From NCBI GenBank assembly GCA_020137815.1, contig CM035351.1, positions 4,588,001 to 4,652,000 of the forward strand: DNA of 64,000 bases, written 5' to 3'. Below the pieces are notes generated by a model that was given only the letters and a program-made list of their open reading frames with translations, was not told where the DNA came from and did no database searches. The position numbers and the translations under genes were made by a program. Shown here piece after piece: positions 3,318 through 58,100 of this stretch. Position 1 is the first letter of the stretch, and the number at the start of each line of letters is the position of its first letter. The stretch comes from Hormiphora californensis (lineage: Eukaryota; Animalia; Ctenophora).

Positions 3318-7203
<3,886 letters not shown>

Positions 7204-8671: not shown

Positions 8672-9386
8672 GGCATACGTTGCAGGCCCCTTATAATATA
8701 ATATAAGGGGCCTGGAGGGAATACCGCGCTGGGGGGGAATACATAATCAATCATATCTCCGGTTCCAGATAAGGTACAGAAATCGTTTTAGTAGCGTTGG
8801 AAAGAGGAAGATAAGAGCTTTTAAATGCAACCAGTTTCAGGTCTCTATCTTATCAGGAACAGGAGATATGAACCAAACTCCGCAAAATCGAGTGCGGTAA
8901 AATCGAAATTTGAATGAAATTTAAAAAAAGGTGTCCCTGCAGGAATCTGTGACGTCACTTTTTGAAAACAACCCATCTTTCAACGGCTATTGCTCAGCCT
9001 CCTTAAGTCCAATTAACTTCTCTCAAAAACAGCAAGGTAGATAATCGTCAGATCTAACAACTGGTGAACCTTCGAAATTAAATAAGTAACGCGCGCATCT
9101 TTAAATTTAAATTGCGCGGAGGTATATTTGCGCGTGCTAAATTCACGACGTGATGACGTCACAGCGCTGGAGTAACGATCAAGGAATTCCACGCCCATTT
9201 TGTTTATATCCAGTCGAGGCCATTGGATCAGAGCCAGGACAACCTCCCCATATCCCATTCCAACACAACAAACATATAATTAGTTAGGTAAGAAAAAAAA
9301 ACCTCAATTTAAGTTAAAACTCAAAATAAAAAAGAAACATTATCGGACAAGTGTGGGGCGAGTGATTCACATCCGAACGAGTGTCT

Positions 9387-11150
9387 CTACAACTTATCGT
9401 AGTAATTCTCGAACTGTGGCAGCTCATCCTTGAGACCCTTTCGTTTCCTTGTGGTCATGACGATTCCGTTGGCTTGACTTCCAACGGTCATGGGGTCAGA
9501 TGGCAGGTTCTGAAGGGGGATGTTGGGTTAGTGGACGATATTAGGATACCGAATTACAATGGATTCTAAAATGGTATTGCTTGAGCAACACTAAAATACA
9601 CAATTGAAGGGTAATACTTACAGCCCAATGATCGAAGACACACTGAGGGAAGGCCTGTCCACCGGTGGCAGCCCTGAGAGCACTGGAGAATCCGAATGAC
9701 TCGTTGACGGGGAGATGAGCCTTGACCATGAACATGGGTGTTCCCTCAACCTGGAACTCCTCAATGACAACACCCCTCCTCTTGGTCAGGGTACCGTAGA
9801 TTCCTCCAACGCTGTTCTCGGGACACTGGATCTCGCACAGGTAGACGGGCTCCAGAAGGGAAGGCTCAGCTCGGAGCACGGAAGCGTACACGACACGTCG
9901 GGTGGTGGGGATGATCTGGCCACCTCCCCTGTGGATAGCATCAGCGTGGAGGGCGACATCGTGGACGTTAATCCTGACACCTCGCATGTTCTCGTCACAG
10001 AGCACACCCTCGTTGGCGGCCCACTGGAATCCAGCGACAACGGAATCCTTGATTTCGTTCAGGTACTGCACTCCCTTGGAGACATCAGTCACCAGGTTGG
10101 GTCCAGTCTGGTCGGGTCCGAAACACCAGATCTTCCTGGCATCGTTGACGTTCCAGTCGTTCAGGCCGGGTTCGGCAACATTTTCCGGGAACTTGTCGGT
10201 GATGATCCTGCGGGGAAGGGGTGGGTGAGTTGGGGAGGTCTACATCTCTCTCTGGTATATACACCCCATGTAATGTAACACACACACGGTCACATTCGAG
10301 CGTGTTACATTACACGGCTCTGTGGATGAATTTTGATAGACGCGCGGGAAGACGTACTTTTAGAATGCTGTCCACTGCAAGTTTACATAATCGCGCACGC
10401 GCACACCGCACCAAGTGAGAGAGAGGGGGAGTTGCAGCCTCTCTCTCGGGCGATGTAGGGGAGAGGGGAGGGGAGAGACTGACACGTCAAGTAGAATGGG
10501 AGCAGGATGTGGTGTGTGTGGAATGGGAGTGGCGACTACCATTGAAATTGAATCAAACATTCAGACAGACCAACAGACATATACCAATATTCTAGCACCC
10601 TAGGGGGACCCTCTCAATCACCGGTAACTTTCTGCAGGATTGAACAGAGAATATCGGCCCTAGTTACGGCATATTTTAGTGTTCCTGAGATTAGTTCATC
10701 GGGGAGGTGCCCGGAGCTCCAAACGGCCCTAATTGCACCCTTTTGGTCGACACAACACGTCACACTGCCCTCCTCTATTCTCTCCTCAGCCCCCGTGGGA
10801 TCAGGGATGGTTGTACCATCGAACACTAGGGAGGGGAGGAATGGGGTCAGGAAACTGGGAGGGAAGTGGTCAGGAATTGAGAGAGGAGGAAAGAATGAAA
10901 CACTAGGGAGGGGAAGGAAGGGGTCAGGAAACTGGGAGGGAAGTGGTCAGGGATTGAGAGAGGAGGAAAGAATGAAACACTACGGAGGGGAGGGAAGTGG
11001 TCAGGAATTGAGAGGGTCAGGAATTGAGAGGGGAGAGAGGACACTGGAGAGCTAGAGAGAGGACCAGACAGATATTGATAAGGTAGAGCGTCCAAGGAGA
11101 TCAATTTCAAGGAATTAAATGTGTTAGGATGAGGTCATGCGAGAGAGGGG

Positions 11151-11236
<86 letters not shown>

Positions 11237-12016
11237 GAGAGAGAGGGGGGGGGAGAGTTTAAACTGATAAGATCATCACCTGATAATGTAACAGAAACAG
11301 GAAGATAGTTCAACTTCAACTTTACTCCCTCCCCATCCCTATCCACAGCCACCACATCTGTCTCTGCCGAGTACTGGGTGGCTGGCAGGGTGGCTGATTT
11401 GAGTGCCGCTGAGGTGGCTAACAACAAGGCATCCCACACATTTCCATCATCATTCAGACATACCGCATCAACGTACAGACACCAAGACGTCTTGCCGGGC
11501 CGGACACATAACTGTGTCTTGTCCACAACTTTATCAAGTACGGCAGCCAGTCGACACGACATAGCAACAGCTGTGTCACTGGGCATTCCGGGTCGATATT
11601 TAGAGTTGCAGAGAGAGGGAAGGGTAACATTGGGTACCACAAACCCCTCACCAGGCCTGTCTATATCAGGTTGTGCAAAGCGGCCCTTTATCCCCGCTAT
11701 TACTCGAGTATCCCCAAAGCACACCATTGAACTGCCGAGAGCAGTGGAGATAGAGTTGACATGAAGTTTGATATCCCGGCAAGAGGTAACAGCCCGGCCG
11801 TCCGGTCTGATGGATTCTCGGAGGAAGAGGCGGTGGTACTGGTGGGGTTGGGCAACTTTGAAATCGTCAGCCATGGCTATAGAGGGGGAACACGGGGGTT
11901 TACTTTGTTCTGTGTAACAGAGAGAACGGAACAACTTTCATATAATGGGATACTGTACAATGTGGGAACAGGTGTCGTGGATGTGTGAGTACGTATGCAG
12001 TAGAGATAGAGGGGGG

Positions 12017-12085
<69 letters not shown>

Positions 12086-15000
12086 ATCGATGAAGCATGT
12101 GATCATAATTAAGATACATTTGTTTAACAGCGTAGTGCTACGTCACGGGTGATCAAAGGGGGATATTATGTAACCGCAGTGGGCAGCATTCCCAGTAACG
12201 CGCAATCGCACTTGGTTACCATGCCCTTAAGGGTACACCTGGCGTTTTTCATCATCGAGTGCCCAACCAAATGACTTCACCAGGGTTTAGGCCATACAAA
12301 ATGGACCTCAAATATGCAATTTTAGCCCTAAAGTCGAATTCATATTTTTGCTACAGCCTATTTTCAAAGTGGCGTTTTTTCAATTTTTGGTGGAATTTTT
12401 AACCTCAGGACCACTTTTTTTGAGATAGAAACATTAAATTCTTGGAATTTGAAGAGAATATAAAGGTAAATAAGCCCAAAGAAGGATTTTTGAAATGGAG
12501 CTTATTTCTGGCCATGAGAACGGTTTACTTTTTTGCTTCTTTGACACGGTGGCTGAGAATGTTCCCATGCTTCATTAGAGATGAAAATCTGGAAATAGTT
12601 GCTCAAAACGATTATCTATGTGGCCCAAAAATTTTGGAACTTTCCCGCCAAAGATGTGGTGTACAGGGCTTGTTTTGTGAAACCCATCTTTTTGAAAAAG
12701 AGGGAAATTCCCTGTATCTCAAAAATGGATGATCGTAGAGACCTGCGACCAAGCTTAATCGATTCAGAAGGTCCGATTTTGGGGGGGTCTTCTGAGAGAC
12801 ATTTTGCTCCTACTCCAACCGTTTTTGCTGTACTTGCAAAAAACCAATTCTATGAAAAGGGGGAACAACTCTATTCCAGTAGCCTGCTTCGGGCTGATTT
12901 CCCCCTTACTTACTGATACCTTTTTCGCAATTACAGCAAAAACGGTTGGAGTAGGAGCAAAATGTCTCTCAGAAGACCCCCCCAAAATCGGACCTTCTGA
13001 ATCGATTAAGCTTGGTCGCAGGTCTCTACGATCATCCGTTTTTGAGATACAGGGAATTTCCCTCTTTTTCAAAAAGATGGGTTTCACAAAACAAGCCCTG
13101 TACACCACATCTTTGGCGGGAAAGTTCCAAAATTTTTGGGCCACATAGATAATCGTTTTGAGCAACTATTTCCAGATTTTCATCTCTAATGAAGCATGGG
13201 AACATTCTCAGCCACCGTGTCAAAGAAGCAAAAAAGTAAACCGTTCTCATGGCCAGAAATAAGCTCCATTTCAAAAATCCTTCTTTGGGCTTATTTACCT
13301 TTATATTCTCTTCAAATTCCAAGAATTTAATGTTTCTATCTCAAAAAAAGTGGTCCTGAGGTTAAAAATTCCACCAAAAATTGAAAAAACGCCACTTTGA
13401 AAATAGGCTGTAGCAAAAATATGAATTCGACTTTAGGGCTAAAATTGCATATTTGAGGTCCATTTTGTATGGCCTAAACCCTGGTGAAGTCATTTGGTTG
13501 GGCACTCGATGATGAAAAACGCCAGGTGTACCCTTAACATGGTAACATCTCTTGTGACCATAGTAGCACCTCTAGTTACCATGGTAACACCTCTAGTTAC
13601 CATGGTAACGCATCTAGTTACCATAGTAACACCTCTAGTTGTAACAAATCTAGTTACCATGGTTACACATCTAGTTACCATGGTAACACATCTAGTTACC
13701 ATGGTAACACACCCAAACCATTCCACTTACTTGGCTCGGACTTTGGGATCCTGTCGGGGTGTGATATCACCATCATCAACCATACAACAGAAGTCCTCTC
13801 CAAGGGGCTGGGCCTTGCAGAACAGCCTGTTGTGCTTGTTGGGAGATTTTGAGAGACACATCATGTCACTCCTGTCTCCGATGGTCTCCTTGTAGGACAC
13901 AACGGGGTCGGATTTCTGTGGGGAGGGATGTTGTTAGTTTCAAGTGGAATGGGAGCAGAACAGAGTCAAGTTTGATTAGATTCACTAATCACTAAGTTTG
14001 ATAGCAATCACTATAATAATAACGGGTGACCGATGGGTGTTAGGTTATGGGGCTCTCTATATCTATACCTTGATGGGAATACAAGCATGGTCTTCCTCAA
14101 GATCCTTCAGGCAGATCTCAAGATGGAGTTCTCCAGCACCAGCGATAATGTGCTCTCCACTGCTCTCGTTGTAACACTGCACCATGGGATCGGACTTGGC
14201 CAACCTCTTCAGACCTTCCACAAGCTTGGGCAGATCCTTGGGGTCCTTGGCCTCAACCGCAACTCGGACAACAGGGGAGACAGAGAACTTCATCTGTTTC
14301 ATGTTGTGGGCATCCTTGCTGCTCTCGTTGGTGATAGTTCCCGTCTTGACAATGTACTGGTCAACTCCGACGAGACCGACGGTGTTACCGGCAGGAACGG
14401 TGTCAATGTGCTCAACATATCGTCCCATCATGAGAACGGTCCTGGTGGGAATTGAAGGGGTTAAAGAGTGAACATCGGGAGAGATTTCAGTTACATATCT
14501 CTACTGAAAAAAGTAGTCTTACTACACACTAACCCAACCTAAAAAACACTAATTAATAATTTGTAATTATTAACTACTAATTACCTCTGGATGGTCTTGA
14601 CGTTCAAGTCCTCGTTCTTGCCAGGGATAAAGTTGGGTCCCATGATCCTGCACTTGTATCCAGATCCAACGGTTCCAGAGAAGACTCGGCCGAAAGCGTA
14701 GAATCGTCCCTTATCAGAGGTGGGTACCATCTTACTGACGTACATCATCAGAGGAGCATTGGGGTCGCAGTTCTCAATTCCCTTCATGTAGGGGTCGTCC
14801 TTGGGTCCCTCGTACAACATACTGGCCCTGTACTTCTGGGCAGTAACAGGAGATGGCAGATGGATGGTGATCATCTGAAGGAGGGTCTCTCCAGCAGGCA
14901 GCCACTTCCTCATGATCACCTTGAAGAGCTGCTTGCCTTCCAGTTCCTTGTCGGCATTGGTCAGCTCAACCCTTAGCTTCTCAGCGAAGGCGATGGCCTC

Positions 15001-17048
15001 CTTGGGAGCGAAGGGAGGGGTCATGCAGAAAGAGAAGATCTTGTAGATGGGCTCGAGGACGAGCTTGCAGAAACCTCGGACGGCTCCATCCTTCTGTTTC
15101 TTGCTCCATTTTCCCTCGGCATCAATATAGTTGTCACCCCACAGTTTCTTGATGTACTTGTCACACTTCTCCTTGTCCTTCTTGGTGTAGAAGTCAGCGA
15201 ACTGCTTTCAGGGAGAAACCCCATCCGTGGAGTCCAGATCCGAATCCGACGGTTCCGAACTGGGGGTCAACCTGGATATCACCCATGGGTCCCTCCTCCT
15301 CTCCGTAGATGGAGACGATGGCGTTGATGTTCTCAACAATCTTACGGAAGGTATCGTACAGGGTCTCCTTGTCCAACTGCAACTCCAGAAGGGCTCGGTC
15401 CATCTTGTTCATGAAGACGATGGGCTTGATCCTCTCGGTCAGGGCCTGCCTCAGGACGGTCTCGGTCTGGACGCACACACCGGACACGGCATCAACGACA
15501 ACGAGAGCTCCATCAGTGACTCGGAGGGCAGCGGTAACCTCGCTGGAGAAATCAACGTGGCCCGGTGAATCGATCAGGTTGATCAGGAAACCGTTCTTTC
15601 CATCGTGGTACTGGGTGGTGTTGAGGAACTTCATGTTGTACTCATCCAACTCGTAGTAGAGAGACACACCAGTGGATTTGATGGTAATACATCGCTCCTG
15701 TTCGTCCTTACGGGTGTCAGTGAATCGGGCTTCTCCGGCCTTCTCGTTGGCAATGATACCTGGGGTGAGAGGTGAGGGGGTTAGAGGAAGGGGTGAGAGG
15801 TGAGGGGGGTTAGAGAAGGGGGGTGGGGTGAGGGGGTTAGAGAAGGGGGGGGGTTGAGGGGGTTAGAGAAATGGGAGGTGTAGGGGGTTAGAGAAATGGG
15901 TGAGAGGTGAGGGGGAAGTGGGTGAAGAGGGGGTTAGAGAAGGGGGGGTGTGAGGGTGAAGAGGGGGATAGAGAAATGGGATGGGGTGAGGGGAAGTGGG
16001 TGAAGAGGGGGTTAGAGAAATGGGGTGAGGAGGGTTCTGAGAAAGGGAGAAGGAAAGGAGGGAGTTTGGGAAACGGGAGGGGGAACACTGAGTGTAAATA
16101 TAAGATGGGGGTGGTTGGAGAACTAAGGGTGAGGGGTGGTGATAGAGAAAGGATAAGATGTGAAAACCGGGGCTTATAATATTGAATATTGGAATCGAGA
16201 TTATCAGTAGATCAACTTAAGTGATACTAGAGTATGGTACGCTCCCAATGTGACATTCCTCGCTAGAGGGTTCATGGTGGGGGTCATTGCAGCAGTAGGG
16301 TGTTAATGTGACTACGTGGCAGAGGGGTAATTGTTATTTTAATAATCTGCCAAGTTGTTCATGTTGTTGACATAATGAATAATCAGGTGATCACGAGAAA
16401 ATGGAAATATCCCCAATTCCGACTTACCAGCCTTGGAGACAAGGGAATCGGTCAAAGTGGATTTGCCGTGGTCAACGTGAGCAATGACTGACATGTTTCG
16501 GATATTCCTGGGATAGTCCATAGACTTCCGGATATCGGCAACTGTGAAATACACCTGAGGAGAGATGAGGGTGTTAGAGGAGGTTTGGAAATAAAGGGAA
16601 TTAGAGGGGTATCAGATTTTGGGAGAGTTGGGAATGTTCCATGTCAAGTTGAACCGCTCGTCCCGTGTGTGGGGATTGTATGAACAAATGGGAAGCAGTG
16701 ATATACACATTATCCGATAGTCTAGTTGTTTAGTGAATTAAATTGTGCAATTTGGGTGAAAAACAGGTTTGGAATGTCAATAGAACTTAAATTACGAATA
16801 TCAATGATTCATTGATTACACAATGATCAGATGCATCTAATGAATAATGATGTAGTACGTTCCAGGGTCCAATTCAGGTGCATTATGACGTATTGAACAC
16901 TAAGTTCCCTCTCCTGTGCATGTGAAACCATTGCAACATGTACAAAAACACACGTGGCAAAGGTGTGGCAAAACGGGGAGCAATTAAGGGGTTTAATCGA
17001 GGTACTTAAGACATTAAACAAGGTATTTAAGACACAATGACTTACCAT
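9387..17048 (-). CDS. EEF2: Eukaryotic translation elongation factor 2; 7 exons: 17048-17046 (ATG only), 16554-16428, 15759-14585, 14441-14069, 13915-13731, 10207-9622, 9509-9387
   Basis: [22 protein letters not shown]; [22 protein letters not shown]; diphthamide loop [16 protein letters not shown]; C-terminal ENYYDKL*. All junctions GT-AG. Two apparent frameshifts (~15210, ~15020) are likely assembly errors. Confidence 0.98.
10614..11874 (-). CDS. EXOSC8: Exosome complex component RRP43, nested in EEF2 intron 5 on the same strand; exons 11874-11280 and 10825-10614
   Basis: [27 protein letters not shown]...[10 protein letters not shown]...[23 protein letters not shown]...[19 protein letters not shown]; exon 2 [15 protein letters not shown]; the phase-1 junction G|TG joins in frame. 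Confidence 0.92.
12231..13533. mobile_element. Foldback non-autonomous DNA transposon, ~610-bp near-perfect arms, TTAA duplication (Kolobok-like termini)
   Basis: ttaa-GGGTACACCTGGCG...CGCCAGGTGTACCC-ttaa; mirror-image ORFs in the track; ~80-bp spacer near 12844-12920. TTAA with purine-starting termini fits Kolobok rather than piggyBac (CCY). Confidence 0.85.
13538..13710. repeat. 21-bp minisatellite containing palindrome GTTACCATGGTAAC (X-box-like)
   Basis: Unit CATGGTAACACCTCTAGTTAC, ~8 copies, starting ~20 nt downstream of the EEF2 intron-5 donor. Confidence 0.9.
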
Positions 17049-17473
17049 CTTGTCTTTTGTCGATGTAACTCAACAATCAATGTGATAGTGTGCAAACGTT
17101 TGAAAAGGAGGCTTCTGCCTGAATCAAGAAAGGTAAGGGCTTGAAGGGTCACGTGACTTTGGCGTGTAACCTCCGCAAAGACGACCTTGAATTTTATAAT
17201 CTCGAGAGTTGAAATCGACAAATGCAGCGTGCAGCGTTAAATAAGTCGCGCGCTACGTATAATAACGGTGTTTTGCAGCGTACTTTTTGGCTGTAGAACT
17301 CAAAATTTCGGACACAAACTTTTTTTGAAAAGCGCTGCCTATCGGGGGCCAGCAACGTTTGCCAAAAACTTTTTCAAACTTTCTTCAAACTTTTTTGATG
17401 TTTTTAAATTTTAAATTTCTTCGTTTCCACAAGGCAGTACAGCGTGTAGTAATGATAATAAGGTTGCGATCCC
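17049..17473. promoter_or_regulatory. Putative bidirectional promoter between EEF2 and the F-box ORF; possible TCT/5'TOP start for EEF2 at 17101-17110
   Basis: Head-to-head starts ~425 bp apart; CTCCTTTTC on the minus strand ~55 nt upstream of the EEF2 ATG; palindromic GTCACGTGAC at 17148-17157. Confidence 0.4.
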
Positions 17474-17929
17474 ATGGATTACTTATCTGAAGATGTGGTT
17501 GTGAAAGTTTGCAGCTATCTCACTCTTCGAGACCGCCTGGAGCTCTCATATACCTCGAAACGACTCTTCTTTTTTGTGCAAGAGACATGGAGGGACTATG
17601 CTTTGTCAATGGGGTGGAAGGGCAATCATAAATCATGCTGGCTGGATGTTTGTAAAAGGTATCACAAGCTTCAAAATGGTTGGTTTACCGGAAACTTTAA
17701 ATCTGAGCGGATTCCTTTGAACGATGCGACCAGAACAAGACAAGAACTGTTTGGGATTTGCAAATCTAGTGATACTGTTGCACTGTGCACCAACACCGAG
17801 ATTTCTTGTTACCGGAGTGACTCTAAAAACTTAAAAGTTCATCGCCTTCTATCAAAGAATCGAATGTTACGTTGCTCGAAAACACCTCTGTGTCAGTCTA
17901 GCATATCCCCAGCCCTTTGTGCGGGCTAG
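17474..17929 (+). CDS. F-box protein, N-terminal part; continuation disrupted or unresolved
   Basis: MDYLSEDVVVKVCSYLTLRDRLELSYTSKRL is an F-box motif, followed by W..VCKRYHKLQNGWFTG as in F-box/beta-propeller proteins. Possible broken continuation at 18450-18780. Confidence 0.7.
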   Translation: MDYLSEDVVVKVCSYLTLRDRLELSYTSKRLFFFVQETWRDYALSMGWKGNHKSCWLDVCKRYHKLQNGWFTGNFKSERIPLNDATRTRQELFGICKSSDTVALCTNTEISCYRSDSKNLKVHRLLSKNRMLRCSKTPLCQSSISPALCAG

Positions 17930-18937: not shown

Positions 18938-21280
18938 TTATTCCTCGTTAGCTGGCAAAGCTGGGTGATCGTCCATAACCCCGATTTCATCCAAGAAATT
19001 TTCAAGGATTCCCATGTTAATGGTTGCTACAGTTTTGGGATGTAACGTGAGAGCGTGAAAGTGTTGCCCTCTTTGACGGGAGAGGGCTTGACAGAAGCAC
19101 AAGATATGAGAGTTGTCCTCTTTTTCCATCCCACACCATCTGCATAATTCTGATTGGATGAGCCCCCTCTTGAAAAGGAACACTCCCAGAGTTCCCCGGT
19201 TCGATAGGAAATTAGTTACCTTGGCAGAGGTAACTCGCGGCTTTGTTGTGAGGAGCGGAATTACATGGCCAATTAGGTGGTTTGTGCTCACCAGGTTTTC
19301 TTTAAGCTCTCTATAGTAGTCTTGTTCCTCTTTACCTGACCTTTCCTTGGTGTTGAGCTTTACTTTCGACAGGGAAATACGGTATGATGATGGTTCTAGA
19401 AATTCTGTGGCTGCTGCTGATTTAGCCAGTTTATCTGCCAGTTCATTACCATATGTCCCCTGATGAGCTGCACACCATCTTACCGTAGTCTCACATCTTT
19501 CACCGACCTTGTTGAGAATGTTAATCAGGTCCCGGATAGATTTTAGGGATACCTTGTTGTTCTGCAGTCGCAAGAGGGTGACCTGGCTATCAGTGTGGAA
19601 TTTGACCGTCCTGATTGTCAGGTCTTCCAGAACTGCCCTGAAGGTGTCTTCTGCAGCTAATCTCAATGCCTTTGACTCTGCTGCGTTGATAGTCTCTCCA
19701 GGGTGCAGTTTGCACTGCCCTTTGAAAAGTTGTTTGCCTCCTTGGAAGGCACACCATCCCCCTCCTATTTTGCCGGAACCCTGGTCAGAGCCATCTGAAT
19801 AGATGTGAAGTGTGTCTAATTCCGTATTCGGCGTTTCCTCAGTGAGCAAAACTGCAAACAGTTTTGTAGGGTAGGTCGGCGTGCTATCGTCCATCTCCTG
19901 CCCATTCGTCGCTTCTTCCACCTCGTTAGCCAATAGAGTCCTGTGGTCCTTCCACATTTTGCCTTTCCTCATAGGAATGTGTGCTGGTGTTGGGAGTTTC
20001 GCTTGGGCCACTATTGCTCTCCTCTTCGCTGCAACATGCATTGGTTCTATATCCGATAGCCCTATAGCGATTAGCTTTGGAGCAGTTTTCGAGCATCTTA
20101 GAATGCGTTTGGAGGCATTGTATGTAACTGTTTCTAATTTGTTTTGTACTCCCTTCGTAGCAAATCCACTTAACGTTACATTGCAGCCATAAAGCATTTT
20201 CGCCATGGTTATAGTTTTATATACCCACTTCTGTATTTCCGGGTTTGCCCCCCAGTCTGCCCCCAGAGCCCTATTGGCCAGGTGCTCGACCTTTGTTGCC
20301 TCTTTCATCGTTCGTCTAAAGTGTTCTGCCCAGTTTAGTTTTTGGTCCACTGTGACCCCCAGGTATTTGTATACCTTAGCTTCCGGAATTTGGACATTTT
20401 TGTAGAGTAGTTGGGTTCGAATGGGTGGTATTTTGGTTTTATGGGTGCATACCATGAAAAACGACTTTGATGTAGATATGTCCAATCCCATGGTATTGCA
20501 CCACTCCTCAACTCGTTCAAGAATCCATTGTGTCCTCTCTATTAGAGGTTCAAGTTCGGGGCCAGTCACAGCACTGCTTAAATCGTCCGCTAAAGCTTGG
20601 AGGTGCTCAAGCTCATTTACCTTTTCCAGCAGTGGAGTTGTCACCGTGTTCCACTGTAGGGGCATGGAAATCAGTCCTTGAGCTCCTCCTTCCAGTTGAC
20701 CTCTGATGACCCTATCCTCCCCTTCTCCCACCGAGATGATTCTGTGGTCCAAGAATTTCTTCAGGATACCTGAGAGTGGAGCCGGACAACCATGATTTGT
20801 GAGGTGATGGTTCAGCTTCTCCTTGCTTATCCTGTCAAAGGCACCCTTTATATCGATAAAGAGGACCACCGCGTACTCTCTTCTGTGTAGTGCTCCTTCG
20901 ACTTTTGTTATCAAGGAATCCAAGGCTTGTTCACATCCCCTGCCGGGGACAAATCCGTACTGTTTCGGATGGAGCTTTGTGTAAATTTGGGTGTCTGTTT
21001 CCAGATGCTGGAGTATGAGTCTTTCCAGCAGCTTGAAGAACACCGAGGCCAGAGTTATTGTTCTATAGTTGGCCGCGTCCTCCTTTGGTCTATCTGGTTT
21101 GGGTATTAAGACACCCCGGGTTTCGCACATTTTGCTCGGTATCGATTGTAAGACAATGCAGTCCCGGTATATTCTGCACAATCTCTCTCCAATTACTGGG
21201 AGGATGGCTGTGAGAGTTTTCCATCGAATACCGTCCGGACCAGGCGCCCCATTCGGGTTGTTAATTTTCCCCATAGCCAA
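18938..21280 (-). mobile_element. 5'-truncated non-LTR retrotransposon ORF2 (RT + RNase H + zinc knuckle; I-group, Loa/R1/Tad1-like)
   Basis: APGPDGI; LIPKP...NYRTITL; QYGF; FIDIKGAFD; ALADDL; YKYLGVTVD; RNase H IYSDGS, AE, TDSQ, GNELADKLAK; CRWC...HILCFC. No endonuclease or ORF1 present. Confidence 0.93.
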
Positions 21281-21292
21281 TTCATTTTAAAC

Positions 21293-24200
21293 ATGTGTTT
21301 ATCAGGGTTTTTGGTATTCTCTCAGGGCAGAAGAAAATTAATTAACCAGACTGGTGTTTGTTTCAACGAATTCACTATAAAAGTTACCGGCTTTCAGGTC
21401 AGTAAAACCCAGAAGTTTGGGTACGGTTACATGGTAAGTCAGATTGTGTGTATCCCTGCTGGTCTACTAGCTCTTGAGAGATGTGGATTTCTCTCCCAAC
21501 TCTCCCAACACCTGTGGACACTGTTGGAGAATAACGGGCAGGCCACATCCGTTGATGATCCTATAACCCAACCGCCAGATCCCAACTTCGAGGGTGCTGT
21601 TTTAAAGGCCCTTACTAGCTTACTACAGGTATCCCCCCGTCACACCATTGTTTCTCAGTGAACTTCATCTCTCACTTCATCTCTCACCTGATTTCACCTA
21701 GCAGCTAGGATCTATCTGCATGTTTTATTAACCCTCAACCCAATATCTCGTTAGGTATTGGTTTGTTACGACTCTCTGTACTGTATTCTGGGAGGGGAGT
21801 ACAAGGCGGTCCCTCTGAACCCTGAGATCTACCGACAGCCACCTCCGGAGCATGTTCTAGATCTGATACATCGGATAATCTTTATAGGTAGGGACTGTTC
21901 CACCTCTCTCAGAGAATAGATTCTCGGAGCTACATCACACATATAATAATAAAATGAACGTTTATATACCCTCGTCCCTAGGGTATATCACTATTAAAAC
22001 AGTATATAATGATCATGAATCAGATAATCCCTCATTTTGGCTAATTTTCCATGTCTCCCTACAGATAAGTCGAGGATGTGCCTGCTGAACTACGATACAA
22101 TGCAAGTGTTTGGTCTCCGTATCCTTCTCCGTGCTGACGTCATGTCTGGATACCCTGTTGTACCTACAGGAGTATCATGACGTCATTGCCTTTCTGTTGC
22201 AGTGCCAGTCGGAGAGCAAGATAGGGGGACGGATCGTGGTAGATGAGAGTACCATTGAGAGAAATCAGATACTTGTCCGGTGTACCGTGCTAGGTGAGAA
22301 AGATGAACTTCGAGTATTGTTCATGAATTGTACCATCTAGGCCCTAGGGGCTACTATACCATGAATTACCCCAGAACAATACTACATGATAGTCTTTTCA
22401 TAATGAACAATCACCCTTCATTTTGCAGGTGGTGCTACAGAGAAGGTGATACCTCCTCGTGTCCTAACGGGTGACGCTTCCTACCCGTATACACTGTTCG
22501 ATACCCTACCAGCCCCGTCATGTTACTGTACACCAACACCCAATGATGTAAAGGTTAGTCAGCTGCCAGGCCAATGCTCTGACCACAGTTCTCGCACACT
22601 CCGCCAATGCTCTGACAGCTGCCACGGGAATGAACCCTACTACTGTGATCTAAACCTCCTCCTGAGAATATTGATTTTTCCACCCGGTAAAGTGTGAAAT
22701 ACCTACCTAAGTGGTGGCAACGATTTACTAGAAATGAGAAATATGTGTGTGTCTGTGTGTAAGCGTCGTAACGAGATACAGTTGAGACTTGAGAGCAGTA
22801 AAAATTATTTCCCCGGATCCAACTCTACTACTTTCGGGCAGGTCATCCTCCAGACGCAGCAATCACAAACAAACAAACTCCCACCCGATCAGAACGAGAT
22901 CACAAACAAACAAACAAACCAACTCCCATCCTCAGAACGAGATCACAAACAAACAAACAAACTACCACCCGATCAGAACGAGATCAAGCTATCAGCAGCC
23001 CTTCTGGGGGGAAGTGTAGGTGACACCTGGTTGGAGAGAACGAGATCATTCGTCCTTGTGGCATGCCGTAAACCCTCCTTTTCTGGTCATGTTGGGCTCA
23101 TGGAGGTGGTGCTAAAATACCAGCTACAAGAGGCACCAGAGCAATGCTTCAAACCTATCGAGGTAACGAAGGGGGCCTTGGTAACGAAATAACCCTTGCG
23201 GGCACGCTAAGACGTGCTTTACTACCGTAATGCCTTAGTTACGAGGGGTAGTTTCTTTACCAATGAATGGATACCGGGATTAGTATAAAACTATGCCCAC
23301 ATGTCTTGTTTTGAGTCGCCTGACACTGTGTATAATATTGTCTACCCTGTTTGTTACACCACCTCATTATCCCCAGATGTCTGCAGAAGATTTCATCCCC
23401 GGCTCCCCGACTGGATATAAGATAATTGGAGTGAAATACGGGTGTAAACTGTTTGTTGAGTATGGTATGCGATTGGGTATTCTACCTGAGCACTCCACAC
23501 CGGAGGCTCTGGAGGATTTCTGCTATCAGTTTGCCCATGCGCTTAGCAAGCAACAACACTATGTCGGTGGGTTAACAATAACATGATCTGCTAAGAAAAC
23601 ACTGCCTAGATTTCTTGGAAACAGCCTGCTCGAGGTTACTGTCAATTGCCTCCCAACTGACATGTTATGTGTAACCCCATGTCATATTCAGGTGACATAG
23701 CTTAGTGTGTAACCCCCCACCCCCCCCCCCCCCCCTCTGTCAGGTGACCAAACTAAGTTTGACTGATATATCCCCCTGTCAGGTGACCAAACTAAGTTTG
23801 ACTGATATAAACCCCTGTCAGGTGACCAAACTAAGTTTGACTGATATAACCCCCTGTCAGGTGACCAAACTAAGTTTGACTGATATAACCCCCCTGTCAG
23901 GTGACCAAACTAAGTTTGACTGATATAACCCCCCTCTGTCAGGTGACCAAACTAAGCTTGACTGATATAACCCCCTCTGTCAGGTGACCAAACTAAGTTT
24001 GATTGGTTTATTGGTGTCATATACCTGCTGTACAGTGGACATATTGACCGTGCGACTGATTTCCTAGTTGCATTCTCAACCACCCTTACCTCTGGATACA
24101 TTTGGAAACAACGGCTCGTTAAATCACGGGCCATCAAACCGGAAATCGCGTCAAGGTAGGAACTAATTTATCTATAATGGTACAGTTTGTTATGTTCTAA

Positions 24201-27200
24201 CCCTCCTTTACACTTTATAACCCTCCTTTACATTTGTTCGTGGGCTGGGGGGGGGGGCGCAAAACAGAGTCTAGCTAGGCAACCTACAGTGTAATCGCAT
24301 ATTATAGGAGGCAGATGAGGGCCGCATTTATTTTCCCATCTATGGGTCCTATCACGGAGAAGACAATCGCCTGAGGGGCTTTTGTATCTCACCCATATCT
24401 CACCCATATCTCACCTATATCACCAAATACTCGGATTAATACCCCCATATCCATTATCCTTTCTACTGACTTCACACATAACGCTGGGTTTCACTTGTTT
24501 TGTGTGGTGTTGTCGGCGATATTTTACTAGTGGATTTTATCCATGCACTTAAGATGATATTATATAAAGGAAGTCACGCTGCCGAACTTTTCAGTAACTT
24601 TGTTGTAACACTCTCACACAGGTGTCTATGTGACCTACTATTGGCAGATCAAACAATAATATCTCTCATTATATCTCCAATTTTTCTCCTCAATCATCTC
24701 TTTTCCAGTAGCTGGGTGGCCAGTCACTGATTCACGATACGGTGAACATTACCGATCAAGAGAGTTGCTCATCTAGAGATTTGAATCTAGAGAGTCACCA
24801 TTCTGATTCCACGGAAAACTACCCATGAAAAATACGGATGTAAATTCTGCACTGTATGCCATTTTTTAGCGAATCCACAACTTTTTTCTTATTCCCATAT
24901 AAAACTACTCAATTCACCATTCTGGGTAGCTTTCACGAATGGTATAACGCGTGATGTTAACGGATGTAGATTCTGTCATGTTCATAGCAAACTTCACCAT
25001 TTGTTGTTGCTCCCAGCTTTTTATTTTACTTGTCCTCGAAAAGAAGTCAAATATAGTCGGACCCCGATTTAGGGACACCCCCGGGGGAAAGGCTCTTGTC
25101 CACTAAATCGGGGTGTCCACTAAATCGGGGTCAAATAAGGCTAATTTCCTATATCGGGGGAAAAAATCCTGTCCCTAAATCGGGGTGCCACTAAATCGGG
25201 GTCCGACTGTATTAGTTAATTGTTAATTTACCAATTTATATTGTACAGAGTCAACGTGATGAATGAATCAGAGATCTATCTCCCAACAACAGTATCTATA
25301 CCCCTGAGTGTTTACAACTTTATCGCTACCTTCTTTGGGATCGCTGGTAACGGCCTCGTCATCTATTCCTCTATCCGATACGATGCTGTACAGCTTGATG
25401 AAGTATCTGTGGAGTTTGTTAGAAACCTCGCATTGGCTGACATGATGTTTGTCATCTGCTATACCCTTCCCTACTTCATTACACTATCTGTCCGTCGGTG
25501 GGTACTTGGACCGGTTTACTGTTTCATTCAGGCCATAGTCGTTTACATTCCTTGGGCTGTAAACCTCCTGACCGTGCTCGCTATATCGGCATACCGACTG
25601 AAAATGATCATTTCCCCGTTTCACCATATCTCGCTGAGGGCATGCAGGTTGGTCATTGCTCTAATCTGGATGTTATCTTTCTCTTCATTCGTCTTTATCA
25701 TGTTCAACGGCCGTGGAGTGTTTGTCCCCTCTCTTGGGGCATGTGTTGTTGGGTTCCAGAGGGACTTTTCACAACAAAGTGATTATATAGATTTTCTTTT
25801 ACATGTTTTATTCCATTTCACCCCCTTTGCTGGAGTTTTAAGTATTAATATGGTTCTCTTGGGGATAGCAATAAAGAAAAACAACAGTGGGATTAACTAC
25901 AAAGCCTTGTGTGTCATTCTGTCCCTGTCAGGGTTGTTCATGTTGAGTTGGGTTCCGTTTCTTGTGTTTAATTTGTTTGAACTTATCAAACTTCTCTTAC
26001 TGAAATCTCCCTATATTTCCGAGAGTTGGTTGTTGGTTGTTTTTAATACTCAATGTCTCAATTCATTCGGAAACCCCGTCCTTTACACGCTTACCAACAG
26101 ACGCTTTAAAAGATATGTCCGAGGCTTGCTCTATGGTATGTTCACATCAGGGAGGAGAAATCGGCAAATTGCTCATCGTACCGGTAATCGAGGAGACAAC
26201 CTTCCTGCGAGGAGTCGGGTCCGTGCTAACAATGCTGTCATGCAGCAGTCGTCGAGGGTTTAAACTGTCGGATGACTAATAAACTGTTCCCCTGACACAC
26301 AATGTGTGACTCAAGTGTCCGCTGGCTCCACTTTTTGGCCCAAAAACTGTCTCGCAAAATAACTTCAAAATCACAACAAAAGTCAGGGAGCTTGAACCTC
26401 ACCTGGGCAGCCCCTACCTCTCTTGACCCTATCCTTGGTGATTTCACTCCCAACCTCCTTGGCTGGGTATCCACCTCATCCCTTTCAAAACGTCCCCTAC
26501 ATCAACATGGATTCTGGATGTAGCCCCAGGTTGCCTAGCTAGACTGTGTTTCGGGCGCCCCGTAAAGAGAGGGTTAGAACATAACAAGCCCCAGGATTCA
26601 GGAATATTTTCTGCACCTTACGGAACTTTCTTTTGATTGATTGTTTTTATCTTTTACTACATGTATTGTTCTCTACTAACGATTTCCTTTTTCTCTAAAG
26701 AAGAAAGATTTTGTGTTTGAGTTTGATAATTGAGAGGGTAGAGAAGGTAGAGAAGGTAGAGAGGGTAGAGGGTAGAGAGGGTAGAGAGGGTCGGATGTAG
26801 TGGTCTAATGCCCTACATGCCGACGGCGATCTTATCCCAACTTCGTCGGCATTTAGGGTATTAGACCACTAAATCCTACTCGCCCTGGCGAATGCCCTCC
26901 CTACCGACCATTCGGCAAGTTGAGGGTGACTCCAATTCTGTGATTCCAATCGGTGTTGGGGTTCGTGACTCCAATTCTGTTTGTTTGTGCGCGTAGTGTT
27001 TGTACCGCGCGGTAACTCTCCTGTTATGAAAGCAAACTGATTGCTGCGTCTGTCGGCTGTCCAAAAAGAAGAAAAAAGGGTTTGTAGTGAACCTGATTTT
27101 GAGCCTGCAATGCATGCAGCAGCTGTCAGAGCATTGGCCTGACCCTATTCTCATTTCTTTCAAGAGAACTGTGGTCAGAGCATTGGCCTGACAGTGCAGC

Positions 27201-28135
27201 AGCCTGGGAAATGGAAATGGCAGTCTGCCGCCTCTAACAGTTCGGGTAGCACGGCAAGAAATGAATTCTAGCGGGCAATAGTTGTTGAACAAATGATCTC
27301 GTTGACATGTTCCTTGTCTGTCAGCTCTCACACCGGGCCCGGTGCGAGCTCTCACACCGGGCCCGGTGCGAGCTTACGCTTAAATGCCGATAGACAGACT
27401 GCGTAGCATGGCAATGATCTCGTGGATACATGTTGTGAGAACCCTTTGTCTGAGAGGCAGGGATAGAACTCAAATCCAGTCCACTCAGAGTCAGATTAAA
27501 ACAAACAGCACATTTTCTATTGAAAATTAAAAGTATTATCATTTACAACCACCCTTCCTCCCACCCAGTGGTTTGACTTTGGTTCACTACAATGCCTGCT
27601 ATTGCGTAGAGAGGATCATCCAGAAAGTCCTGCCAAAGGTTTCCTGTGCCTTCCGGACTGCTGGCATGTCACCTACTCATATTGTGAAACGGTGGCTAAC
27701 CGCCTGTTTCGTCAACATTCTCAGTTGGAGCGAAATATGTAACTTTGTACTTTTGGTAAGTGTGTGATGCAAGATGTTTACTAGTAGAGTTGAACTTTTT
27801 TTACTTGGCAACACGTGAATTCTGTTTTAAAACTGATTCTACCCAAATTAACCGACAGCCAAAATAATGTTTGTCAGGTCTTTTTAGAATTCTAACCACT
27901 TCCCTTTCAGAGCGTATCAGAAGGATCCGTTTACACTATTCTATACTGTGTGGCGGTGCTAAAACATCTAGAACCTCGTCTACTGAAGCACTCAACCCAC
28001 CACACCCTTCTATACGATCTTCTAGAGGGACCTGTGACAGGGTTCACCCTTCACCAATATCTGGACTATATCTTGGGACTAGAGAAAGAGTTTGGGAAAA
28101 TGTTGAGGGATGAGCTGAGCTGTTTAGAAATCTAA
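21293..28135 (+). CDS. TBC1D32: Protein broad-minded (TBC1D32), C-terminal half; exons ~21293-21628, 21755-21887, 22066-22292, 22429-22553, 22977-23163, 23377-23567, 23984-24155, ~27569-27755, 27911-28135
   Basis: QVSKTQKFGYG; LERCGFLSQLSQHLWTLLE; IVVDESTIERNQILVR; GGATEKVIPPR; FDWFIGVIYLL...TSGYIW; CYCVERII...SCAFRTAGMSP; AVLKHLE. These match my recollection of the BROMI C-terminal region in order. Confidence 0.85.
22877..22986 (+). repeat. Triplicated 3' splice site (cag|AACGAGATCA) of a TBC1D32 exon
   Basis: cagAACGAGATCA at ~22889, 22933 and 22974; the last runs into NEIKLSAALL. Confidence 0.85.
23731..24002 (+). repeat. ~40-bp tandem array of 7 acceptor copies (ctgtcag|GTGACCAAACTAAGTTTGA)
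   Basis: Seven units counted; only the last continues as DQTKFDWFIG. Confidence 0.92.
25054..25209. mobile_element. MITE, same family as 5405-5575 (also 45168-45251 and a left end at 62827)
   Basis: (C/T)AGTCGGACCCCGATTT...GGGGTCCGACTG flanked by TA. Confidence 0.88.
25259..26263 (+). CDS. Intronless rhodopsin-class GPCR nested in a TBC1D32 intron (same strand)
   Basis: Seven hydrophobic segments; GIAGNGLVI, NLALAD, WVLGPVYC, AYR (DRY position), SWVP, NPVLY. Confidence 0.92.
   Translation: MNESEIYLPTTVSIPLSVYNFIATFFGIAGNGLVIYSSIRYDAVQLDEVSVEFVRNLALADMMFVICYTLPYFITLSVRRWVLGPVYCFIQAIVVYIPWAVNLLTVLAISAYRLKMIISPFHHISLRACRLVIALIWMLSFSSFVFIMFNGRGVFVPSLGACVVGFQRDFSQQSDYIDFLLHVLFHFTPFAGVLSINMVLLGIAIKKNNSGINYKALCVILSLSGLFMLSWVPFLVFNLFELIKLLLLKSPYISESWLLVVFNTQCLNSFGNPVLYTLTNRRFKRYVRGLLYGMFTSGRRNRQIAHRTGNRGDNLPARSRVRANNAVMQQSSRV
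26793..26876. repeat. 84-bp hairpin (33-bp arms)
   Basis: GGATGTAGTGGTCTAATGCCCTACATGCCGACG / CGTCGGCATTTAGGGTATTAGACCACTAAATCC. Confidence 0.8.
27123..27194 (-). mobile_element. Mini-element with two direct GTCAG-GCCAATGCT-CTGAC sites (other copies 22563-22618, 34299-34366, 51769-51842, 55062-55168; solo site 5078-5100)
   Basis: Same structure at five loci plus a solo site, read directly. Confidence 0.8.
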
Positions 28136-39461: not shown

Positions 39462-40759
39462 TAGCAGTGGCTGGTGGCTAAAAGAGCCGTATATGTAATA
39501 GCAGTGCCGTAGTTCAAGTGGCTAGTGGAGCTGCAGAAGTGCCTTGTTGATTAGCCGTCGCTAGTGGCTATTGATTAGTTGTTAGTGTAGTAGCAGTGCC
39601 ATGCTCAAGTGAGGTGAGAGTAAAGAGACTGTTGCATACTCTGAATATTGAACCTACCCTATGCTATGAACATGTGAAGAAAGGACATGAAAAAGAAAGA
39701 GAGAAAGTGGAAGTTTTACCCAACTGCTGATCGAGTGAATTTTGTACTGAATTAGAATATTCTATTTTCATTCTATGTTTTTTGAAATTTGTTGTTCGCA
39801 TGTAGGTACATTACCTAATTTAGCGGGATCATTGCAAATAACATCCCATCACGTTCACTAAGTTTAACCACTCCCCACTAACCACTCCCCACTAACCACA
39901 TACAGTATACACTAACCACTCCCCTGGACCTAACCACATAGTACCTGTAACCACGTACCTTGTACAGAGAGGTTATAGGCGCTTATCTCCCGATCCACGT
40001 CTGTCTGCGGGGAGATGACAGGACACATGTTATTATTAGGGGTGAGTATACTTTTTTCCATAAAATAATCGAGTATTTTATGAGAAAATGAAAATAAAGT
40101 AATATTAGGGGGGGGGGGGGGTGATGGCTGTAAACTTGTTGGGTGATAACCAACTAGACATTAGAACTCAAAATACCCTTCAAGATAGATAGTGAGAATG
40201 GGAAAGTAAGCGGTTTTAGGTCATAGCTCAGGCTACTTCCCCTGAGTAGAATGCCCCGCAAAACTTTCCCACCATTACTCGGGCTAGGAATAGGAGAACT
40301 GATTACGCCAGTCATGTATCTTTCTAAGTACAGCAGATATTTTTTACATAACTCTGCCTAGTGGTGGTGGCCGCGGTATTGAATTCATACAAGCATGTAA
40401 ACACGTGTTGCCCCGGGGGGGGGGGGGGGGGGGGTAGCTTTCACAAATCACAGTTTGAGATGGGTATTGGGTGTTTATTGTTTAACCTGGTTTAAAAGTT
40501 GTTGGCACTAGTATTATATCTCCCATCCCAAGCAGTGCAGCAGTGGGTACCACATATTTCACACTTATCGGCAAGTGTGAAATATGTCTTGCTCGACCAC
40601 TTTCACACTGACCACTTTCTCACCGCGCCCCGGTAAAGGAGGGTTAGAATATAACAAGGTAAAGGAGGGAACTATAAATAAATTTCTTTGTAGGTCGGTA
40701 CTGGTTATACTCGCTGATGTTTCAGAAATCATACAAAATTTCCACCATACTCCTAGATC

Positions 40760-55187: not shown

Positions 55188-58100
55188 TCAGTCCGTCCCA
55201 CTCTTTTTTCCAAAGGTATCAATCAAATAGCCCAGGTCGGTAAACTTGGAGGTTTCTGTTTCGGATCCCACTACTACGTTTCCATGGAGATTATCAGGGG
55301 CGAGGTATCGTCCTGCCACGTCCATTACTTCTTGTCGTGTCACGGAGAGAACACCTAGATGCAGCGAGAATAATCAGTTAGAGTTGTGCACCGGGGGGGG
55401 GGGGGGGGGGGGGGCACGTCGCGCCCCTCATGTTCGCGCGCCCGTAGGGCGATCCCCTCACATACGCGGGCACACCAGGGGGGGGTAGTTCGAGAGTGGT
55501 GGCTGTAACCACTTTGGAGTAGACCTAGTAAGAAATTAGACAACTCCAGACTAACGAAAAGAGCGCGGTGTGAGTCACACAACTCCAGAGTCTGGTATTC
55601 TACTTGTAGTCTGGACTACAAGAACAACACCAGCTCATACAAAATTAATCAGAGATATTATGTAAATTACCTGCTCTATAAGCTCGTCTCTGGTCGAGAT
55701 CCATACCACCCAGGAACTCTCCCAATCCTCGTGATCCAGGGGCAACGGGTGCGTCCTGTTTCCCCATCACCGATATCTAGATCAGGACAGGCCGGTTAGT
55801 AAAATAGTAACTTTATGAAACGGATATCTAGTAAGACAAGGACAGGGGTTATTAATGGGTTATAAGATAGACAGGGGTTAGTAACTCTATGAAATGGATA
55901 GTGGTGAAAGCAGGAGCACCGATTATATATATTTGCACGATCCACAGTCAGGCATCACTATTCTGACAATGGTCACTAGGCAGACATCGCGATGACAGAT
56001 GACACTTTTTGTCAAACATACCTGCGCTTCGTTAAGCTGTTCGTCAGTGAAGGCTCCCTCAGCAGCCCACTGAGCAGCCCTATCAAACACCTCCAGGGTG
56101 GCAGTATTATTGGGATCTCGGTAGGAGAAGAACGAAACAGCCTGGTTACTCGCCACACATCCACTACCATATGCTCCACCCTTCTCTCTGACCTCCCGGT
56201 GCAGGTATTTGGAGGACAGGAGAGCAGCTAACACGCTCAGTTTGGGGGAGTCAGGGTGGGCGGCTGGGGCTCCTCTGAAGGACCTACTGCAGAAGTTGAC
56301 ACCGAGGTTCTGGACTTCGATAAACCTGGGCGGGGGAGGATGGTTTACATTTTGTCGAATACATAGTCATTGATATTTGTGTGTTTATGGATGTTAAGCA
56401 CCGGCCCGGTGCTTTTAGTGTTTAGGGACCTAAGATATCATACGATACCGTGTGAGTACACGAAACAACTGTTCTTACTCGTTAATAGCAGAGATAGATG
56501 TGAAAGATCGAGTGTCAATTGAGTAGTCCTTTGATGACACTCTATCTGGTATTCTTCTGAGCAGCTCACTTAACGCATCAACAACCTCGTCTACCTGTCA
56601 TAAGTGGAGAGGAATCGTTTGGATTTATAATCACGAATTATTTTATGAATTCAAAACAGGTTCCGCCGTGCCGAATTACAGCTATATTGCGTTAGAAATA
56701 GTACGTTCCCATGGTAACCGGGAGAGGGGGGTGCTGCCATGGTAACATGGTGCTGCCATGGTAACATGGTGTTGCTATGGTAACATGGTGTTGCTATGGT
56801 AACATGGTGTTGCTATGGTAACATGGTGTTGCTATGGTAACATGGTGTTGCTATGGTAACATGGTGTTGCCATGGTAAGATGGTGTTGCTATGGTAACAT
56901 GGTGTTGCTATGGTAACATGGTGTTGCTATGGTAACATGGTGTTGCTATGGTAACATGGTGTTGCTATGGTAACATGGTGTTGCTATGGTAACATGGTGT
57001 TGCTATGGTAACATGGTGTTGCTATGGTAACATGGTGTTGCTATGGTAACATGGTGTTGCCATGGTAACACGGTGTTACCATGGTAATATGGTGTTGCTA
57101 TGGTAACCTAGTGTTGCTATGGTAACATGGTGTTGCCATGGTAACATGGTGTTACCATGGTAACCTGGTGTTGCCATGGTAACATGGTGTTGCTATGGTA
57201 ACATGGTGTTGCTATGGTAACATGGTGTTGCCATGGTAGCATGGTGTTGCCATGGTAGCATGGTGTTGCCATGGTAATATGGTGCTGCCATGGTAACATT
57301 GTGTTGCTATGGTAACCTGGTGTTGCTATGGTAACATGGTGTTTCTATGGTAACCTGGTGTTGCTATGGTAACATGGTGTTGCTATGGTAACATGGTGTT
57401 GCTATGGTAAAATGGTGTTGCCATGGTAACATGGTGTTGCTATGGTAACATGGTGTTGCCATGGTAACATGGTGTTGCTATGGTAACATGGTGTTGCCAT
57501 GGTAACATGGTATGGCAGTTACCTGACTGAGTGTCGTGTTGATTGCCACACTCATTAGCGACCTATCCATGGTGACATAATGGGTACCCGCTACCTCCGA
57601 TACCAAGTCCTGAGGGAGAGAAGGGGATTTACAAATATAGCTCGTTTCGAAACCTTCCTGATTATGCTGCTTATCTTGACGAAGCTGTGCTACATACTAT
57701 TCGTCTTGCTCGGCCCTCTTTCAAAACAATAAACGATAGAAAGAAATAATATCAATCCAAATGGAATCTCCAAGTTATGTTCTAGTTTTGACTCACTCAG
57801 ACCTCAGTTCTAGTTACCTGTACATCACCGTTGTTGTACTGCTGAACCAGCTGGGCCTGTTTGAAGCCACCTAACTGTTCAGATAACTGGCCCAGGGGTG
57901 ACAGGTGGGACCGAGACCGGGTCATGGCGTACTGGTGGCCACTCTGGGTTATACCATCTTTCTGACTCGCTACCTGGAGTGTGGTGGATCAGTACTAAAG
58001 AGAAGTGGTGGATGCAGGATGGGATCTAAAGAATATATTTACAAGTGGTGACTTAGAGGTAACCAGAACTATAAAAAATACCCAGATCCAACAGACCTAG

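Follow-up and report, generated by a model that had tools for sequence, protein, structure and literature searches.

EXOSC8 nested on the same strand inside an EEF2 intron of the ctenophore Hormiphora californensis: a candidate for release by spliced-leader trans-splicing

In a 64,000-nucleotide (nt) stretch of the ctenophore Hormiphora californensis (assembly GCA_020137815.1, contig CM035351.1, positions 4,588,001 to 4,652,000; hereafter the window), the minus strand carries a seven-exon EEF2 gene with GT-AG introns, and the two-exon gene EXOSC8, encoding a 268-amino-acid RNase PH protein, lies wholly within EEF2 intron 5 on the same strand. With a whole gene in one host intron and in the same orientation, EEF2 and EXOSC8 are a parallel nested pair, and RNA contigs from two studies establish that each is expressed and separately spliced. 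We put just short of an even chance on the EXOSC8 mRNA arising from the EEF2 primary transcript by spliced-leader (SL) trans-splicing, a fate that would compete with EEF2 splicing, and about an even chance on EXOSC8 using the EEF2 promoter. The parts of the two genes, in window positions, are as follows.

17046-17044, 16554-16428, 15759-14585, 14441-14069 and 13915-13731, minus strand: EEF2 exons 1-5, from sequence and 96%-identical records
13730-10208, minus strand: EEF2 intron 5, the host intron (GTAAGT...CAG), removed whole in RNA
11877-11900, with AG at 11878-11877, minus strand: pyrimidine tract and AG, 2 nt 5' of the ATG, a likely trans-splice acceptor on orthologue evidence
11876-11280, ATG at 11874, minus strand: EXOSC8/RRP43 exon 1, from RNA contigs, profile and homologues
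11279-10826, minus strand: EXOSC8 intron, with donor GTGATG, (CT)n and 77-nt tandem copies of the acceptor edge
10825-10517, stop ending at 10614, minus strand: EXOSC8 exon 2 and 3' untranslated region (UTR), with RNA reaching at least 10517
10207-9622 and 9509-9387, 3' UTR to near 9280, minus strand: EEF2 exons 6 and 7, from profile match and RNA contigs

The nested gene is identified as EXOSC8/RRP43 by its RNase PH domain (PF01138, E=2.5e-23) and by its closest named relative, an RRP43-like protein of Bolinopsis microptera that is 61% identical across exon 1, in a search with 15 hits from 146 candidates; PF03725 was found in EXOSC8 orthologues but went unscored in window exon 2 alone. The EXOSC8 splice from 11280 to 10825 was present in RNA contigs of two of the four runs, from two studies (query 11255-12005), where both contigs stop at 11280 and resume with the letters of 10825-10796, and one 559-nt contig extends to 10517 (query 9150-10812). 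The joint of EEF2 exons 5 and 6 across the whole of EXOSC8 was recovered as a loose contig end at 10207 in at least three of the four runs, again from two studies, with loose-end letters equal to the exon 5 sequence at 13731-13760, and all EEF2 exons but the 3-nt exon 1 are tiled by transcript-sized records of 96% identity. These gene models and splice joints confirm what a first-pass annotation of the window had proposed, namely a complete two-exon EXOSC8 in EEF2 intron 5 in the same orientation and an EEF2 splice that skips it. The poly(A) signal that the annotation credited to EXOSC8 was not seen: none of 14 poly(A)-type hexamers sought behind the gene, AATAAA included, stands in a telling place, and AATAAA is also missing from the 3' UTR of EEF2 itself. 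The EEF2 frame is broken by 1 nt near 15205, where a short A run holds one extra base; this is likely an assembly error, because 96%-identical transcripts are open at that point. Contig depths (about 19-190 for EEF2, about 2-5 for EXOSC8) are unfit for ranking the genes and were left unused. The acceptor edge of EXOSC8 exon 2 is repeated in tandem copies of 77 nt (10822-11052), which create decoy AGs at 10902 and 10979, and RNA uses the last AG, at 10825.

A metagenome scan returned 62 loci, three of which (L001, L002 and L003, at 51-61% identity) are ctenophore EXOSC8; the other 59, at 28-40%, were left aside. L002, whose EXOSC8 is 51% identical, starts in EEF2 exon 5, with 40 of 40 residues equal to record P0025, and runs as a single contig through GTAAGT at the same codon as in the window, 230 nt, AG and the ACC ATG of EXOSC8. 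L002 thus shows EXOSC8 in the same EEF2 intron in a divergent ctenophore. In an EEF2 protein tree of 24 sequences, the L002 EEF2 groups with that of the window (92/94, not starred), apart from the lobates, and a clade of 19 rows (100/100) contains the two records closest to the window along with Mnemiopsis and Bolinopsis. A look at synteny in relatives, which the first-pass annotation had proposed as a check, shows the pair linked in both lobates as well. The Bolinopsis EEF2 and RRP43 are XP_063695222.1 and XP_063695223.1, both on a 23,028,209-bp contig, and the Mnemiopsis EEF2 and EXOSC8 are ACHWQZ_G012192 and G012194, both on a 20,866,784-bp contig; this numbering demonstrates linkage, not nesting. 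The pair is kept together in spite of a gene order that has been largely scrambled between Hormiphora and Mnemiopsis (PMC8527503). One Mnemiopsis gene number, ACHWQZ_G012193, lies between the two and is possibly another nested gene. L001, which is 99.6% identical to Bolinopsis XP_063695223.1, has a pyrimidine-rich tail (...TTTTCA) that is a candidate exon 6 acceptor and, if so, would mean nesting in the lobates. Further ctenophore DNA was sought in viral contigs and prokaryote genomes, and none was found there.

The 5' end of an EXOSC8 orthologue carries the signature expected of trans-splicing. The L001 transcript begins TATAACAAATAATTTGAG and bears, 9 nt before its ATG, the leader end AATTTGAG (one contig), in which the Hormiphora and Mnemiopsis spliced leaders both end (PMC8527503). 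This match sits at the expected place of a leader; the genomic flank of L001 lies outside the contig, and the L003 contig starts past the EXOSC8 5' end. The acceptor that the first-pass annotation saw 2 nt before the EXOSC8 ATG is present in the window, an AG stands 2-3 nt before the ATG in both the window and L002, and the leader motif has no match in the window at up to three mismatches, leaving the leader untemplated upstream of EXOSC8. These AGs, together with the leader on L001, make EXOSC8 trans-splicing likely here, and we consider it very probable that the EXOSC8 mRNA of this species carries a trans-spliced leader. In Hormiphora, at least 56% of the long reads bear a leader (PMC8527503), so a leader on a gene does not imply an operon. 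Joining EEF2 exon 5 in cis to 11876 reads ...VRANHG-stop, with the stop after three codons, as the annotation had it, and such a join meets an early stop in all three species compared.

L002 also bears on the origin of the transcript. It is without the EXOSC8 intron, and 88%-identical records (P0175, P0177 and P0178) appear to run into an intron at that codon, so that L002 looks like RNA unspliced from EEF2 into a matured EXOSC8. Because exon 5, intron and intron-less EXOSC8 are contiguous in it, L002 fits an uncut host transcript ending at the EXOSC8 3' end, and the mere 230 nt from donor to acceptor leave little room for a promoter and an outron.

Intron 5 holds several features that the first-pass annotation had overlooked: a foldback element, a tandem repeat and a pair of complementary arms that bracket EXOSC8.

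13538-13730, minus strand: donor and 21-nt tandem repeat, with a related array near 57000
12227-13537, unstranded: foldback element, 1303 nt, between TTAA duplications, from self-comparison
12165-12191, minus strand: upstream complementary arm, core CCACTGCGG..ACATA, recurring in the L002 intron
10363-10391, minus strand: downstream complementary arm, 155 nt 5' of the acceptor of EEF2 exon 6
10266-10317, minus strand: local hairpin of 18 bp, some 55 nt 5' of the exon 6 acceptor (z -3.7; equalled by 1 of 200 shuffles), with no other copy in the window

From the host donor towards EXOSC8 the interval consists of the 21-nt tandem array, then the foldback element, then 350 nt of unique sequence. 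The arms, found by self-search, span 27 and 29 nt (12191-12165 and 10391-10363) and are complementary at 25 of 29 positions, with a predicted duplex of -38 kcal/mol that 10 of 2000 shuffles equal; in the repeat-masked background at the same spacing, six of 512 tile pairs do as well, these being the arm locus twice and one other locus. No third copy of the arm sequence occurs in the window. Co-folding the arms gives -69.3 kcal/mol as against -47.2 kcal/mol apart, a gain of 22 kcal/mol, and in a fold of 2019 nt the duplex can be imposed at a cost of 0.8 kcal/mol. Compared with the L002 intron, the upstream arm is the best-matching 27-mer of the 350-nt flank (37 of 5000 shuffles as good). L002 ends 133 nt past the EXOSC8 stop, short of the position of the downstream arm in the window. 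The arms are a candidate stem, with about as good a chance of pairing in vivo as of staying apart.

The foldback element has arms of 617 nt, TTAA included, with three mismatches, a 77-nt spacer and ends GGGTACACC (GGG...CCC). It is single copy in the window, it holds no open reading frame (ORF) with a clear role, and it is young. It may be akin to the TTAA-target non-autonomous DNA transposons of Kolobok/T2 type, with which it shares the TTAA duplication, long terminal inverted repeats and purine-first ends; here the element is simply a passenger in the intron. Each EEF2 pre-mRNA would contain it as a hairpin of 600 bp, which could be an editing substrate. The GTTACCATGGTAAC tandem arrays at 13538-13712 and about 56950-57460 are related.

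These elements suggest a model in which a single EEF2 transcript would have two fates. In most transcripts the arms would pair and loop the inner gene out, bringing the exon 5 donor near the exon 6 acceptor and hiding the EXOSC8 acceptor, donor and 3' end; the foldback element, folding on itself, would further let the donor approach that acceptor, and EEF2 mRNA would result. In a minority, a leader would be added at 11876 and cleavage would take place behind EXOSC8, so that the gene would be released by leader trans-splicing and its own 3'-end formation while the EEF2 transcript would be lost. Any join of exon 5 to EXOSC8 in cis would meet its early stop and be degraded.

Several observations weigh against this model. 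Contigs of this species leave 11818-11876 uncovered, and neither a leader nor an exon 5-EXOSC8 junction is therefore visible in it; of the annotation's proposal that EXOSC8 is trans-spliced, what stands is the leader end on the lobate orthologue, the one place where the leader was seen, and not the 5' end of this gene. L002 is a short-read contig and may join EEF2 pre-mRNA or DNA reads to mature EXOSC8 mRNA, and an EXOSC8 promoter of its own would yield such an assembly join too; because a short-read assembler could merge separate molecules, L002 leaves a bicistronic precursor unproven. Chance alone would put the cis join out of frame in three of three species in 30% of cases. The arm duplex is missing from both the free minimum-free-energy and the ensemble fold of 12226-10208. 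The arms score as complementary boxes beyond chance against shuffles and masked tiles, unlike against the unmasked, repeat-rich background, where scoring is permissive and 388 of 1964 random genomic pairs score equally high; under similarly permissive scoring, 238 of 500 shuffles equal the arms when the 5' flank is taken in full (1854 nt). Aligned over its whole length, the intron has no significant similarity to that of L002 (249/1000), the motif common to the arm and L002 was spotted by eye before its test, and three unrelated window sites match the upstream arm no less well than L002. No partner arm is recognisable in the 3' parts of L001, L002 and L003, so there is no covariation. Finally, the block conserved with L002 contains TGACGTAG as well and may act as a promoter, as a pairing arm or in both roles.

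That last point leads to the strongest rival, to which we give a chance somewhat below even, close behind the model above: EXOSC8 would be an ordinary parallel nested gene with an outron and its own promoter, which would lie towards the 5' end of intron 5 or else within upstream EEF2 exons. Such genes are common (PMC8527503, PMC11694760), a G-protein-coupled receptor (GPCR) gene in BROMI providing a further case in this window; the leader frequency given above implies that most monocistronic genes carry leaders (PMC8527503), and the CRE-like TGACGTAG lies in the conserved block 260-320 nt before the EXOSC8 acceptor. Yet the short donor-to-acceptor interval of L002 would have to house that promoter, the young foldback element sits 35 nt from the conserved block, and that block has complementarity to sequence beyond EXOSC8 too. 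The peak of observed/expected (o/e) CpG before EXOSC8 is 1.05, against 2.16 at the EEF2 start, 1.22 at an SDR gene and 1.38 at a cathepsin gene, a comparison that is weak because 43% of 182 background stretches reach an o/e of 1.0. A capped start with a cis-spliced or unspliced 5' UTR and no leader in this species is very improbable: the 5' end is uncovered here and the leader comes from one contig of a lobate orthologue, but an AG directly precedes the ATG in the window and L002, the leader of L001 stands at the matching place, and no GT donor apart from that of EEF2 was found to serve EXOSC8.

We regard it as quite unlikely that one transcript gives both mRNAs, whether EXOSC8 is cut out and the arm-held halves of EEF2 are spliced as a broken intron, or EXOSC8 is made from the excised intron. 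The segment to be cut out would indeed have the arms immediately beyond its two ends, one 5' of the branch region of the acceptor and the other at least 125 nt past the RNA-covered 3' end, and a hairpin follows the downstream arm; the arm pairing is only predicted, however, and absent from the free fold. Cleavage exposes downstream RNA to 5'-3' degradation and termination, which counts further against this possibility. A comparable rescue has been proposed as a hypothesis for human introns (PMC8052449). That the nesting is a misassembly is next to negligible. The 617-nt near-perfect inverted repeat in the intron and the 1-nt EEF2 frame break, by which the assembly has errors, could raise that suspicion, and the first-pass annotation had listed it; the same layout in an independent species (L002), the neighbouring accessions in two lobates and the exon 5-6 joint in RNA make it very unlikely, and both ends of the foldback element retain TTAA duplications.

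Release of EXOSC8 from the EEF2 transcript would have parallels in known systems. Small nucleolar RNAs (snoRNAs) and microRNAs are encoded in introns of host genes, and here likewise an intron of a housekeeping transcript would be the source of a second product; the product here is instead a capped, spliced mRNA, and no Rfam family reaches threshold in the intron. A known snoRNA or microRNA was ruled out, with nine weak matches in 9000-17500 and one in L001-L003, all far below thresholds. In SL-resolved operons of C. elegans, Ciona and Oikopleura, a same-strand downstream gene gets its 5' end from a leader and spacing is short, about 100 bp in C. elegans against 230 nt in L002 (PMC7986045, PMC1657053). 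The downstream gene of such an operon follows the upstream poly(A) site; EXOSC8 precedes EEF2 exons 6-7, inside its host and behind a splice donor, so that its 3' cleavage would cut the host, and co-transcription is putative here. In fly Nmnat, complementary boxes favour a distal acceptor over a proximal, poly(A)-bearing one (PMC2724269), and the boxes of Nmnat and of human loop-outs at pairs of conserved complementary regions (PCCRs; PMC8052449) surround a proximal acceptor and 3' end as the arms do here; an exon of the same gene is looped out there, whereas here it would be a whole trans-spliced second gene, with arms known from sequence alone. EXOSC8 would thus behave as an SL-resolved operon gene to which a Nmnat-type loop-out has been added, an analogy that places it firmly in neither class.

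Same-strand nesting is common as a layout. Hormiphora has 2357 nested genes, many of them parallel, and their processing has been left unexplained (Schultz et al. 2021, PMC8527503); the EEF2/EXOSC8 pair resembles them as a protein gene in a same-strand host intron of a ctenophore with a leader-bearing transcriptome. Among human protein-coding pairs, 75 are nested parallel and 152 antiparallel, with 29% and 52% kept in mouse (PMC2330155), and a broader mammalian set shows a slight antisense bias only (PMC11694760). The annotation's statement that nested genes are mostly antisense was therefore too strong, given also the many parallel cases in Hormiphora and the second one in this window. Many nested genes have been reported in leader-bearing genomes, and the accessible parts of those reports draw no link between the two traits (PMC10282587, PMC12584245). 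We found no account of the EEF2/EXOSC8 pair, or of leader-resolved genes in ctenophore host introns, in the open literature, Hormiphora supplements aside.

It is the conservation, the leader and the arms that make EEF2/EXOSC8 useful: a housekeeping pair with a conserved intron position, a leader on an orthologue, the 230-nt spacer of L002 and short, mutable arms renders the question of ctenophore nested-gene processing directly testable. If EXOSC8 is without a promoter, an operon has been built inside a gene and EEF2 transcription governs the supply of exosome; with a promoter, EXOSC8 is nested in the ordinary way, though well conserved, and the arms are still a candidate host shield. The functional link between translation and RNA decay that the annotation drew found no support in this analysis. 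Were one EEF2 transcript to give both mRNAs, the self-made split intron would explain in general how ctenophores cope with so many genes nested on the host strand. The corresponding idea of ctenophore intronic operons, with a conserved duplex holding the severed halves for splicing, we consider unlikely.

The second same-strand case in the window is an intronless 7tm_1 GPCR (ORF 25220-26263) in a BROMI/TBC1D32 intron (24157-27568, plus strand); the BROMI exons on its two sides are consecutive, covering profile positions 245-295 and 302-358, and no full-length relatives of BROMI turned up when they were sought. A short dispersed repeat stands in inverted copies on either side of the GPCR (24187-24285 and 26528-26587), with further copies at 6496 and 40625. 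This second bracket, with a predicted duplex of -92 kcal/mol, was dropped as support for looping, since both halves recur in the window (6496-6525, 40625-40658). EEF2 and an F-box-like ORF are arranged head to head, with some 430 nt between their starts (17046-17474), around the strong CpG peak (o/e 2.16), and the interval is likely a shared promoter. Directly past the exon 5-6 joint, ctenophore EEF2 proteins (P0018, P0167, P0031 and P0197) are 7-10 residues longer than the annelid P0052. Between the F-box-like ORF (17462-17929) and a BROMI exon lies, antisense, an open 782-amino-acid reverse transcriptase-RNase H ORF of a long interspersed nuclear element (18938-21286, minus strand).

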